A DNA stretch of 64,000 bases, from sequence record NC_135728.1, one strand, 5' to 3'. The position numbers and the translations under genes were made by a program. The notes under the pieces are model-generated. The model searched no databases, was not told the origin of the DNA, and was given only the letters and a program-made list of their open reading frames with translations. Numbering within the stretch: the first letter of the stretch is position 1; the number at the start of each line of letters is the position of its first letter. This DNA comes from a phage. Below, one piece after another: positions 10,585 to 59,028 of the stretch.

Positions 10585-10916
10585 TGACTAAAAATGCTGT
10601 AGATAATGCAATTATGGAAGCTGTTTTTGAGGATGATCATACAACAGGGACACTTAAAACAAAAAACACATTTATTGTTGCCACAGGTATGTGGCGGTTG
10701 TACGAAGATGACACTATTGCATACATCTTGTATACTGATGATTACGCAGATGACCGTGTATGGTCTGCTGTTTTAAAAGAGGATTGTGAGCTGATTGAGG
10801 GCGAGCGGTTATGCATGTTCACCAGTGTGGAAACAGATGTTAAGCTTTGCTCTCTCGTCTTGTTCAAAGATAAGGCTTATGCTCCTGATGAAGGAGAGGA
10901 GGATGAGAGAGCATGA
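10584..10916 (+). CDS. hypothetical acidic protein
   Basis: Track ORF. Confidence 0.5.
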   Translation: MTKNAVDNAIMEAVFEDDHTTGTLKTKNTFIVATGMWRLYEDDTIAYILYTDDYADDRVWSAVLKEDCELIEGERLCMFTSVETDVKLCSLVLFKDKAYAPDEGEEDERA

Positions 10917-11542
10917 GAGAGCGTCTATTATCCATAGACCAGTCGTTGACACACACAGCTTGCGTTGTATGGGACGATGGAAAGCCTGTTCATAAGGTTG
11001 TGTTACGAACTCAAAGCTCATCTGCAAAAGAGAAGAAACCAGGGACGGTTTCTTTTGCAACAGCTGCTGAGCGCATTGACTGGATCTGCAAACAGGTCAG
11101 ATATTATATCCACACGCACGGAGTTGACACCGTGGTTATGGAAGGGCTTTCCTTTGGATCACGCGGTGATGCCACACGTGAGCTGGCTGGGCTGTTTTAC
11201 GGTCTTGAAATTATGCTTTGGGATGCCTTAGCTGATTGTGAAAATGACGGCCTGTTTAAGGTCCACACAGTGACACCAACAACTGCCAAAAAGTTTGCTC
11301 GTAGTCATCTTCCTGAAGAACTTGCTTTTGAGGAGAAGAAAAAGCTTGACAAAAAGACAGGTAAAGAGCATACTGTGAAGAAACCTGTTACAATGGATAA
11401 AAAGTTGATGGTTAAGGCCTGCGAAGTATCTGAACCTGGGTTCCTAGATGGGATCAATTTGGTACAAGGTAAGGCCGATCTCGCAGATGCTTATTGGATA
11501 GGCAGGGCTCATCTGGAGGGATTATCGCAAAGCGTAAAATAA
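10913..11542 (+). CDS. RuvC-like Holliday junction resolvase
   Basis: SIDQSLTHTACVV, VVMEGLSFGSRGD, C-terminal ADLADA; ATGA overlap with upstream gene. Confidence 0.6.
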   Translation: MRERLLSIDQSLTHTACVVWDDGKPVHKVVLRTQSSSAKEKKPGTVSFATAAERIDWICKQVRYYIHTHGVDTVVMEGLSFGSRGDATRELAGLFYGLEIMLWDALADCENDGLFKVHTVTPTTAKKFARSHLPEELAFEEKKKLDKKTGKEHTVKKPVTMDKKLMVKACEVSEPGFLDGINLVQGKADLADAYWIGRAHLEGLSQSVK

Positions 11543-12099
11543 GAAAGAAAGCTGTCAAAGCCCCAGTTCATAACGGGTGGTTAAAAGATTCTAAGGACAT
11601 AGCCAACTTTCGAAAAGAATTGTCAGAGGAGCAGGATGGTCTTGATCCGATCTTGTGCGAGCCACTTCGTAAGCCTTGTTTAGATCATGATCATCTGACT
11701 GGTCGTTGCAGGGGTGTTTTGTCTCAATGCACTAATACCTTTGAGGGATATGTGCTTAAATACTGGATGAAATACTGTAACGAGTATACAGATTGCAGTT
11801 TATCAGAGGCGTTGCGCCGGATGGCTGACTATTTGGAGAAAGACTACAGCGACTTCCCGCTCCACAAAAACTACAGAGATGATATGACAAAGTTCTTGAG
11901 GAGATGCTCTAAAGCTACGATTATTGCACGAGCAGAATCAGATCTAAATCTTGTCATTAATCCGGAGTGCACCAAGCATGAGGCTATTGAGTTCTACATG
12001 CAGGAGTTTATAAAGAAAACTGAGGAGAGAGATTTCTATGGGGATGAAAAAGGTATTCAATCCTTGCGACTCAGTCCTGATCAGGATGAAATACCGTAA
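11494..12099 (+). CDS. endonuclease VII-like HNH nuclease domain protein
   Basis: CLDHDHLTGRCRGVLSQCTN (DHxHxTGxxRGxLxxxCN); only start available in frame is TTG at 11494 with no RBS, 48 nt inside previous gene. Confidence 0.5.
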   Translation: MDRQGSSGGIIAKRKIRKKAVKAPVHNGWLKDSKDIANFRKELSEEQDGLDPILCEPLRKPCLDHDHLTGRCRGVLSQCTNTFEGYVLKYWMKYCNEYTDCSLSEALRRMADYLEKDYSDFPLHKNYRDDMTKFLRRCSKATIIARAESDLNLVINPECTKHEAIEFYMQEFIKKTEERDFYGDEKGIQSLRLSPDQDEIP

Positions 12100-12259
12100 C
12101 TGGAAAGGTGTTGTTGCAGATCGCTGCGTTACTGAGCCTAATTTATGGTTTGGATCTACAGAGTATCATAAAGAAGAGCAGTGGTTGATGCGTGCCTTCG
12201 ATGTAGACAAGGGCGAATATCGTGACTTCGCTTTAAAAGACATTCTTCAGTTTTACTAA
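12038..12259 (+). CDS. hypothetical protein
   Basis: GGAGAGAG RBS; overlaps previous ORF end. Confidence 0.35.
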   Translation: MGMKKVFNPCDSVLIRMKYRNWKGVVADRCVTEPNLWFGSTEYHKEEQWLMRAFDVDKGEYRDFALKDILQFY

Positions 12260-12271
12260 GGAATCTTAACG

Positions 12272-13255
12272 ATGATGACAAAGTTAACTCTTGAGCAAAT
12301 TTTAACACTAAAGCAACAGGGATACACTAATAGACAAATTGCTCGTGAATTTTTAGGCCGTGAGTCACGTGAGAGCTGGATCCGACTACAGCTTAAACGT
12401 GCACAAGAGAATATGTCAGAGATTGTAGGAGAAGCAACGGAGCGCTTCCTTGAAGAACACAAAGGTGCTAAAGTTTGGGTGTATGATACAGAGACATCCC
12501 CAACAAACGGCTGGTTCTTTGGGCACTATAAGACCAACATTCAAACCTGTGGTATTGAAGTTATGCCCTATATGCTAACTTTCGCAGGTAAGTGGTTAGA
12601 CAGCCCTAGTGTGGTTGACTGCGCTCTTCCAGATTACAAAATGTGGGATGAAGATATTCACAATGATCTCGAATTGATTCAGGATTTGTGGTATTATCTG
12701 GATAAATGCGATGTCGCAGTAGCCCACAATTCAGGTTTTGACTGCGGGTGGGCCAACCAACGATTTGCATTTCACGGGTTGCCTCCAACAAGCCCCTACA
12801 AAGAGGTTGACACCCTTAAAATGATCAAGAAGGCATTCCGTTTGAATGCAAACACTTTGGAGTATGCATGCAAATACTTCCAACTGGCCAGACAGAAACT
12901 GATTGATCACACATTTGAAATGTGGATCAAGTGTGTCCATGGCGATCTTGAGGCATTTAAACAGATGCGGGAGTATAATGTTGGTGATATCCTGTCTCTG
13001 GAAGGACTGTATTTGCTGGCTCGCCCGTTTGCTAAGCAGCACCCAAACATGTCATTGTACTACCAGGACGAGGAGCCAAAGGTTCGTTGCCCACGCTGTG
13101 GTGGAGAACACTTTCACGAGGAAGAAGCTTTGGCATATACTCAGCTGAGTGCATTTAAAACATACCGCTGCGAAGGTTGTGGATCTGTTGTTCGTGACCG
13201 TAACAACATCCGTACCAGAGAAGAAATGAAAAACACCCTGATTCAGATAATCTAA
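12272..13255 (+). CDS. DEDDh 3'-5' exonuclease with N-terminal HTH and C-terminal zinc ribbon
   Basis: Exo motifs YDTETS, HNSGFD, YNVGD; CPRCGG...CEGCGS; HTH-like LKQQGYTNRQIAREF. Confidence 0.6.
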   Translation: MMTKLTLEQILTLKQQGYTNRQIAREFLGRESRESWIRLQLKRAQENMSEIVGEATERFLEEHKGAKVWVYDTETSPTNGWFFGHYKTNIQTCGIEVMPYMLTFAGKWLDSPSVVDCALPDYKMWDEDIHNDLELIQDLWYYLDKCDVAVAHNSGFDCGWANQRFAFHGLPPTSPYKEVDTLKMIKKAFRLNANTLEYACKYFQLARQKLIDHTFEMWIKCVHGDLEAFKQMREYNVGDILSLEGLYLLARPFAKQHPNMSLYYQDEEPKVRCPRCGGEHFHEEEALAYTQLSAFKTYRCEGCGSVVRDRNNIRTREEMKNTLIQII

Positions 13256-13263
13256 CAATTATA

Positions 13264-13291
13264 GGGAGGCTTGCGCCTCCCTTTTCCTTTT
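13264..13291 (+). terminator. rho-independent terminator
   Basis: GGGAGGC-TTGC-GCCTCCC followed by TTTTCCTTTT. Confidence 0.6.
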
Positions 13292-58663: not shown

Positions 58664-59028
58664 TATTTATCTCCTTGTTCTTCGTTAGTGTTTGCCGTGT
58701 GTGCAAACCCTGCTTGAATTAATTTGTCCTGAACTTGAGCCAATAGGCCCATTGCAAAACTTGTGGTCCCAGAGAGGGCCATTAGCATATCTCGTTGTTG
58801 AGCTACCCAACCTAAGGCATAGTCCAAACGACGATATTTTTCTTCTTCGCGCAGAGCCTGAAATAATTGTTCAGCCTCCGGTTGTTGTGTGAGCTCCTGA
58901 AGTCTTCCCATGAAAGAAGAAAGCACTAGCAAAAGAGACACTTGATCTTTACTTAACCCTAAGAAAAATTCTTGAGGTTGTTCTTGCTCGTTCATCGCAA
59001 CCGACTCTTGATCGTTCATTTGTTCCAT
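58663..59028 (-). CDS. hypothetical protein
   Basis: GGAGA RBS; overlaps downstream start by 1 nt. Confidence 0.5.
   Translation of the reverse strand: MEQMNDQESVAMNEQEQPQEFFLGLSKDQVSLLLVLSSFMGRLQELTQQPEAEQLFQALREEEKYRRLDYALGWVAQQRDMLMALSGTTSFAMGLLAQVQDKLIQAGFAHTANTNEEQGDK

Follow-up and report, generated by a model that had tools for sequence, protein, structure and literature searches.

Probable initiation of a phage endonuclease VII-like gene at a near-cognate AUC codon within an overlapping RuvC-like resolvase gene

The window analysed here, a stretch of 64,000 nucleotides of sequence record NC_135728.1, comes from the genome of a Vequintavirus (rV5-like) phage with Escherichia coli as its host, and it contains two nuclease genes that overlap in different reading frames. 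The first is an open reading frame (ORF) that starts with ATG and encodes a RuvC-like protein (10913–11542), and the second, which lies in the −1 frame relative to the first and is open from 11473 to 12099, encodes an endonuclease VII-like protein. Database records already name both products, so the gene pair is known at the level of annotation, and the question is how the second gene is translated. Our comparison of related phages indicates that the endonuclease VII-like protein is probably translated from a near-cognate AUC codon at 11524, behind a perfect Shine–Dalgarno (SD) sequence located in the last codons of the RuvC-like gene. The comparison showed that the coding constraint of the endonuclease frame starts at this ATC and that the AUC and the SD are the conserved elements of the junction, as judged from substitutions and aligned columns. 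The features of the junction are listed below.

10913..11542, plus strand: RuvC-like Holliday-junction resolvase gene, 209 residues; its ATG overlaps the stop codon of the upstream ORF (ATGA)
11494..11496, plus strand: TTG annotated as the start in most GenBank records and rejected here; no SD, not conserved
11515..11519, plus strand: SD sequence GGAGG, in the last RuvC codons (RuvC frame ctG GAG Gga)
11524..11526, plus strand: proposed initiation codon ATC (AUC), 4 nt after GGAGG; conserved column
11524..11577, plus strand: basic N-terminal tail of the endonuclease (IAKRKIRKKAVKAPVHNG), which T4 gp49 lacks
11524..12099, plus strand: endonuclease VII-like gene as re-delimited here, 191 residues plus stop; PF02945 and T4 endonuclease VII profile match
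11540..11542, plus strand: TAA stop codon of the RuvC-like gene, 16 nt downstream of the first base of the proposed AUC start
11620..11622, plus strand: second in-frame TTG, rejected here; no SD upstream

Conservation and coding constraint at the AUC codon

The region 10500–12400 matches 120 phage records with 90–99.9% identity, nearly all of them from Escherichia phages of the genus Vequintavirus (rV5-like myoviruses), and the overlapping arrangement is present in 120/120. The junction was also compared in other Vequintavirinae genera and in metagenomic relatives (designated by L numbers), which gave 53 non-identical junctions. At the column of the proposed start 38 of them have ATC, one has ATA (L008) and the remaining 12 have GTG, ATG or TTG (the starts of L030, GTG, and L033, ATG, were read by eye, and that of L023 is GTG); none of the 53 has a non-initiator codon there. 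The order GGAGG (rarely GGGGG), 4–6 nt, ATC is kept in Vequintavirus, Seunavirus, Klebsiella phages, Erwinia (Henunavirus) phages and several metagenomic lineages. Nearly all relatives with ATC or ATA have GGAGG, with GGGGG in L019 and L020, and the SD is kept although the RuvC residues that are encoded there vary (LEG, LED, MEG, WEG, QEA, QGV, GGK). Lineages in which the genes do not overlap (Certrevirus and four metagenomic types) have GTG, ATG or TTG in that alignment column, preceded by GGAG(G/A), and the residues that follow the start are homologous: M-A-V-R-P-A-RRRR in Certrevirus, I-A-G-RRKRR in Erwinia phages and I-A-K-R-K-I-R-K-K in the window. A preliminary description of this DNA, based on its letters only, had named the fusion or separation of the two ORFs in relatives as a check; at the junction, the endonuclease gene does not overlap the RuvC-like gene in Certrevirus and other lineages, and these have canonical starts. 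Certrevirus genomes (L009 phiTE 603–1154, L010 and L023–L028) contain an extra gene, PHROG 12410, between the RuvC-like and endonuclease genes, which overlaps the endonuclease start by 55–90 nt; the endonuclease start there is a canonical GTG or ATG.

In the genes of the window, GGAGG is most often separated from the start by 4 nt (7/23 genes), and 11524 is the only site in the 64 kb at which GGAGG plus an AUH codon (AUA, AUC or AUU) opens a long ORF that has no adjacent canonical start. Another AUH candidate, at 58867 on the minus strand, was rejected, as it lies inside another gene in a different frame. The distance over which the endonuclease frame is open upstream of the ATC is short in several relatives: one codon in L022, five codons in L095 and six codons in L011, L084–86, L105, L111–113 and L116. 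The stop codon of the upstream gene is located between 7 nt before and ∼24 nt after the start codon in the relatives with ATC or ATA, and the two codons share bases in L020 and L022 (TAATC) and in L021 (TAATA); such distances match the geometry of translationally coupled genes. Both the SD and the proposed start fall in the part of the gene that encodes RuvC residues 201–209, past the last predicted helix, where the amino acids of the RuvC-like protein are not conserved, which explains how such an overlap could evolve.

The reading-frame phase of the variation was analysed by counting variable sites at codon positions 1/2/3. Among 13 Vequintavirus sequences, the counts are 18/5/92 for the RuvC body and 16/6/54 for the endonuclease core, each in its own frame. 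This concentration of variation in third positions argues that neither gene is decaying, and by this measure both are intact and under purifying selection. Within a set of seven Seunavirus and Klebsiella-phage sequences, the counts in the endonuclease frame are 13/1/0 in the upstream segment (−60 to −15), where the sites are third positions of RuvC codons, 1/0/4 between the ATC and the RuvC stop, 2/5/15 over the basic tail as far as the GTG annotated in those genomes (third positions 15/22) and 15/5/63 in the core. The difference between the upstream segment and the segment from the ATC to the annotated GTG is significant (Fisher p = 9e-6), and the same switch between upstream and downstream phases is seen in Vequintavirus (p = 1e-3). 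The counts of 13/1/0 in the Seunavirus group and 5/1/0 in Vequintavirus for −60 to −15 point to constraint from RuvC only. Downstream of the RuvC stop, the 78 nt at 11543–11619 have counts of 3/2/11 in Vequintavirus (third positions 11/16, p = 0.004), and this third-position excess indicates that the region upstream of TTG 11620 is coding. The substitution pattern thus changes to the phase of the endonuclease frame exactly at the ATC. The junction has no usable canonical start, and its SD is at functional spacing, with GGAGG 4 nt upstream of the AUH codon and conserved across genera. The preliminary description had stated that the frame contains no ATG or GTG, which is accurate for the part upstream of the catalytic core; GTG 11752 and ATG 11767 exist further on, and they cannot serve as starts because they lie past the catalytic Asn and Glu codons.

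In the mechanism that we propose, the endonuclease would be made as a separate 191-residue polypeptide. A 30S subunit, or a ribosome that is finishing or has just finished the RuvC-like protein, would be held by GGAGG and would initiate with formylmethionyl (fMet)-tRNA at the AUC; the initiator tRNA would pair with the AUC with a mismatch at the third base, and the first residue would be fMet. The outcome would be a low, fixed output of the nuclease, with a physical link to translation of the RuvC-like gene, the stop codon of which is 16 nt downstream. The AUC start probably keeps a potentially toxic, structure-specific nuclease scarce. Although only the free RuvC tail would be altered by a change from ATC to ATG, no lineage with the RuvC overlap shows such a change, so the weak start looks selected, and we infer from this that low expression is the selected property. 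Going further, it is conceivable, and we put it forward tentatively, that AUC has been selected as the start in several Vequintavirinae genera, that it is read by ribosomes coming from or terminating on RuvC, and that it sets a fixed, very low endonuclease:RuvC ratio or makes endonuclease synthesis sensitive to the fidelity of initiation, through initiation factor 3 (IF3), in the course of infection.

Initiation of this kind has precedents. Reporters in E. coli initiate at AUA, AUC, AUU and CUG at 1–2% of the level of AUG, and an N-terminal Met was confirmed for AUC initiation (bioRxiv 10.1101/063800). Like the starts of E. coli infC and pcnB, the one proposed here would be a near-cognate AUH codon behind an SD that gives low or regulated output of a dose-sensitive protein. 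It differs from them in being AUC (AUA in one lineage) instead of AUU, in belonging to a phage gene and in lying within the 3′-terminal part of the gene before it. The regulation of infC is an IF3-dependent autoregulation. The junction also resembles coupled overlapping genes with ATGA or TAATG, in which the start is within a few nt of the upstream stop, and TAATC (L020, L022) and TAATA (L021) are near-cognate counterparts of TAATG; the differences are that the restart codon is AUC or AUA and that in the window it precedes the stop by 16 nt and does not overlap with it. The case adds one more example to a phenomenon that is rare but already known. Literature searches that covered start codons in Vequintavirus, phage AUC starts and the rV5 endonuclease VII with RuvC returned nothing on this start, and searches for proteomic or ribosome-profiling data on the endonuclease start found none.

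Several points weigh against initiation at AUC 11524. All of the support is comparative, and the counts of variable sites come from sequences that are related by descent and so are not independent. In E. coli, an SD spacing of 4 nt is among the shortest that function. TTG 11494 is in frame and is not blocked by a stop in this phage, so a minor longer isoform is possible, and a GTG or ATG that is located 4–6 codons upstream of the ATC in L091, L093 and L095 offers an alternative start there. Confirmed natural cases are also few, infC and pcnB (both AUU) being the only ones named for E. coli (bioRxiv 10.1101/063800).

A phage-encoded initiator tRNA that reads AUC was sought, and the window contains no tRNAs. 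Outside the window, the genome of phage FFH2 (L101) contains an annotated tRNA-Met (CAT) at 12007–12081 with the pairs G1:C72, C4:G69 and C5:G68. It was rejected as an initiator, as it has a G1:C72 pair and no GGG:CCC in the anticodon stem; its anticodon arm is similar to that of E. coli tRNA-Ile2, and an AUA-reading tRNA-Ile2 is a more likely identity for it than a Met or initiator tRNA. The same genome has, at 12164–12262 between tRNA-Thr and tRNA-Ser genes, a 99-nt tRNA-like gene with a four-base anticodon (atcc) that was detected by ARAGORN and is unannotated in RefSeq.

Alternative starts, frameshifting and gene decay

Whether the adjacent ATT at 11521, and not the ATC, is the initiation codon in this phage has to be considered, since AUU is a near-cognate start with experimental precedent (infC, pcnB) and pairs of the type ATT-ATC or ATA-ATC/ATA occur in the window, L013, L098, L020 and L021. 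This is unlikely. ATT 11521 is only 1 nt from GGAGG, and it is replaced by GTT in L103, by TTT in L011 and by another codon in most genera. The codon that precedes the ATC is in fact hypervariable (ATT, GTT, TTT, AGT, GCT, GAT, CCT, TAT, TTC, ATA, GTA, AAA, GAA), and since it is free to vary, ATT 11521 is not a conserved element. An ATA at 11539, at the RuvC stop, was likewise rejected as a start: its column contains GTA, GTG or ATA in relatives, and the phase switch lies upstream of it.

TTG 11494 is the choice of most annotators and is annotated, at the equivalent position, in MiataMamis, AlexBoehm, FFH2, ECP32 and FV3. Translation from it would yield a protein of 201 residues, with the first codon 49 nt inside the RuvC-like gene. 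TTG counts among the canonical bacterial starts, and this one is in frame and unobstructed in the window and in most Vequintavirus genomes. However, the codon is TTT in other genera, and an in-frame TAG separates it from the ATC in five Vequintavirus sequences with 90–96% identity, L011, L084, L085, L086 and L105, which include the phages NHEP1, ECP2303 and B9-1. This TAG is created by a C-to-T change at the equivalent of 11503 that is synonymous in RuvC; as read from their sequences, TTG 11494 cannot be the start in these close relatives. Changes between TTG 11494 and the SD are synonymous for RuvC and non-synonymous in the endonuclease frame. The preliminary description was right that TTG 11494 has no SD upstream, and its finding of two overlapping ORFs, the second starting inside the RuvC-like gene, also stands. 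It had regarded this TTG as the only possible initiator, which does not hold, as there are in-frame TTGs at 11620 and 11653, and ATT 11521 and ATC 11524 lie directly behind a perfect GGAGG. Taken together, use of TTG 11494 as the start of the protein in this phage is very unlikely.

If translation began only at TTG 11620, at TTG 11653 or beyond, the stretch after the RuvC stop would be left untranslated. Annotators have made this choice as well: the equivalent of TTG 11620 is the start in Mangalyan and ECP2303, and internal starts beyond the endonuclease active site are used in NHEP1 and B9-1. The third-position-dominated variation at 11543–11619 described above (11/16 sites in the endonuclease frame) speaks against it, and the amino acids of the basic tail are conserved between genera. 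A start at 11620 would delete the equivalents of approximately the first 14 residues of T4 gp49 and has no SD in front of it, and starts past 11745 would give proteins without the catalytic residues. We regard any of these downstream starts as highly improbable.

Equally improbable is a programmed −1 frameshift close to the 3′ end of the RuvC-like gene, such as one through slippage of tRNA-Lys on A_AAA before the TAA at 11540, which would produce a RuvC–endonuclease VII fusion. The endonuclease frame is the −1 frame relative to RuvC, A_AAA_TAA is located at the RuvC stop and GGAGG lies 16–17 nt upstream, so a P-site slip is conceivable in this phage. This layout of GGAGG and a run of A residues loosely resembles SD-stimulated frameshift sites (dnaX, Bacillus subtilis cdd). 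Programmed −1 frameshifting, as in dnaX and the phage tail chaperone G/GT, shares with the junction the overlapping frames with the downstream one at −1 and the SD-like element upstream of the A-run; the junction differs in that it has neither a heptamer nor a stimulatory structure, and an overlap that would allow a shift is not conserved. Reading by eye of the RuvC-frame codons at 11474–11542 revealed no X_XXY_YYZ heptamer, as the preliminary description had also reported, and the only slip-prone run is A_AAA. The region 11470–11590 has no stimulatory RNA structure (minimum free energy −25.1 kcal/mol, z = 0.26). L021/L008 (GCATAATAG), L020 and L022 lack the A-run, and their RuvC stop overlaps the ATA or ATC; the endonuclease frame of L022 opens only one codon ahead of the ATC, so a shifting ribosome would have no open frame to enter. 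In L098, GGAGG-TAATT-ATC is preserved with a different gene upstream. The upstream stop in L020, L021, L022 and L098 overlaps or precedes the ATC or ATA, which leaves no room to shift. The two codons that directly follow the ATC, upstream of the A-run, already vary synonymously in the endonuclease frame, and in Certrevirus the same protein is made from a GTG or ATG of its own. The preliminary description had foreseen either an unusual initiation or a recoding event; the first would apply, at ATC 11524 instead of the TTG, and the absent heptamer, the z value and the relatives argue against the second.

Decay of one of the two nuclease genes, of which a missing canonical start would be expected, or an assembly or sequencing artefact as the source of the overlap, both raised in the preliminary description, can practically be dismissed, since the arrangement is common to 120 independently sequenced genomes, both ORFs are intact across several genera with variation mainly in third positions, and the catalytic residues are conserved in both proteins (three invariant and D9 at least 90% conserved in the RuvC-like protein, all invariant in the endonuclease).

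An internal promoter for the endonuclease gene was also considered. A sigma-70-like match, TTGACA-17-CATACT, is located at 11346–11374 inside the RuvC-like gene, ∼150 nt upstream of the start. It was rejected: the region has 13 promoter-like matches versus 7.6 ± 2.8 in shuffled sequences, so the match is not informative.

The two predicted nucleases

Catalytic residues were located in alignments of 25 homologues of the RuvC-like protein and 26 homologues of the endonuclease.

10937-39, 11141-43, 11477-79 and 11486-88, plus strand: RuvC-like catalytic residues D9, E77, D189 and D192
11683-11694, 11734-36 and 11743-45, plus strand: endonuclease catalytic residues D54, H55 and H57, N71, and E74, numbered from the ATC

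The identity of the first protein as RuvC-like, proposed in the preliminary description, was supported by a match to PHROG 159 'RuvC-like' (E 5e-39) and by its predicted fold; Pfam gave no match for the protein at E ≤ 0.1, including the RuvC model (PF02075). Pfam RuvC PF02075 is present in two distant homologues, P0030 (E 2e-10 to the query) and P0032 (E 8e-9). A phmmer search of the PDB with the protein returned nothing relevant, and a profile search gave only a weak RuvC match (E 0.46). As direct sequence searches were unproductive, a comparison of folds was needed. The AlphaFold2 (AF2) model (predicted local distance difference test, pLDDT, 92; predicted TM-score, pTM, 0.88) was compared with the PDB using Foldseek, and ranks 1–13 were all RuvC resolvases with TMt of 0.69–0.78, the best being 4ld0 (E 6.5e-8, TMt 0.74). 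The protein is therefore predicted to have the RuvC fold. E77, D189 and D192 are invariant and D9 is at least 90% conserved among the homologues; their equivalence to E. coli RuvC D7, E66, D138 and D141 was assigned by fold position and motif context (xIDxS, MEG, DxxDA), not by superposition. Like the RuvC resolvases of Thermus thermophilus (4ld0), E. coli (1hjr) and lactococcal phage bIL67 (4ktw), the protein would thus have an RNase H-like RuvC fold (Foldseek E 6.5e-8 to 8e-5) and the acidic tetrad. It differs from them in being ∼50 residues longer, with insertions, and its identity to the solved RuvCs is 12–17%.

The description of the second protein as endonuclease VII-like is supported by a match to Pfam Endonuclease_7 PF02945 above the cut-off (31.6 bits, cut-off 23.6, E 1.6e-7), by a match to PHROG 423 'endonuclease VII' (E 5.6e-37) and by the match of a profile of the 26 homologues to residues 11–155 of T4 endonuclease VII (1e7d, E 1.1e-14). 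D54, H55, H57, N71 and E74 are invariant in these homologues and align to T4 D40, H41, H43, N62 and E65. This clade of homologues has lost the four cysteines of the T4 zinc site in register (C23→D, C26→L, C58→S and C61→T in the window protein), and no cysteine column is invariant in the 26-sequence alignment. Other cysteines, C45, C52, C62 and C69, are present within residues ∼43–74 (window 11650–11745) and are not invariant. The AF2 model of the endonuclease has a pLDDT of 86, and the only Foldseek matches in the PDB with E < 1e-3 are T4 endonuclease VII entries, with 153–156 aligned columns. The TM values for these entries are low (0.35–0.43, root-mean-square deviation 18–19 Å), which we attribute to the domain-swapped, extended form of the T4 monomer. 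The overall fold of the model, including the C-terminal helical domain, is predicted to be that of T4 endonuclease VII.

Compared with T4 endonuclease VII (gp49; PDB 1en7, 1e7d, 2qnc), the window protein has near full-length homology and keeps the catalytic residues; it differs in its extra 18-residue basic N-terminal tail, in its non-canonical start and in lacking the T4 zinc ligands in register. When the profile alignment is extrapolated, T4 Met1 aligns near W19 of the window protein. The basic tail is present in all lineages, including those with canonical starts, for example as MAVRPARRRRSKRP, MARTSKRRAK, VKKKQTKAKP (L030, in a GTG-started ORF) and RRRYRKK (L032, after TTG). The last ∼25 residues (YGDEKGIQSLRLSPDQDEIP, window 12025–12099) are specific to Vequintavirus and are poorly predicted (pLDDT ∼50). 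The end of the gene overlaps the next ORF (12038–12259), for which annotators give ATG 12038 or ATG 12086 as the start, and in the FV3 record the endonuclease is annotated with an earlier end. Further downstream, a perfect 8-bp GC-rich hairpin (AGGGAGGC-TTGC-GCCTCCCT) with T-runs on the plus strand and a terminator score on both strands is located at 13263–13282, just 3′ of an exonuclease-subunit gene (12272–13255), and it overlaps the start region of the next ORF (13271-).

Annotation of the gene pair and biological meaning

Many GenBank records name the first ORF 'RuvC-like Holliday junction resolvase' or 'RNaseH' and the second 'endonuclease VII' or 'packaging and recombination endonuclease'. 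Across Vequintavirus genomes the endonuclease VII gene has at least four different annotated starts or is omitted (L001–L004, L084–L090); the HMD-6 record is one in which it is not called. The records of Seunavirus, Klebsiella and Erwinia phages use a downstream GTG as the start, which removes the conserved basic tail. A single re-delimitation of the endonuclease VII start would correct well over 100 genomes. Twenty records labelled 'Campylobacter phage' (MG0656xx, with Campylobacter jejuni as the stated host) are ∼98% identical to these E. coli rV5-like phages, which looks like mislabelling or co-isolation of coliphages.

Natural AUH starts are very rare and few have been proven. A case that extends across genera, with the codon interchangeable with GTG or ATG in sister lineages, makes a clean comparative argument and an easy experimental system. 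If N-terminal data confirm initiation at AUC 11524, the gene would provide a natural, conserved AUC start in a phage of E. coli, with which near-cognate initiation and translational coupling could readily be studied. Expression of T4 gene 49 is reportedly also restrained at the translational level. There the restraint is exerted by an mRNA hairpin, whereas the start region of the window endonuclease has no significant structure. The AUC start may thus suggest how a phage with two branched-DNA nucleases keeps the more promiscuous one scarce, by a route that differs from that of T4 gene 49.

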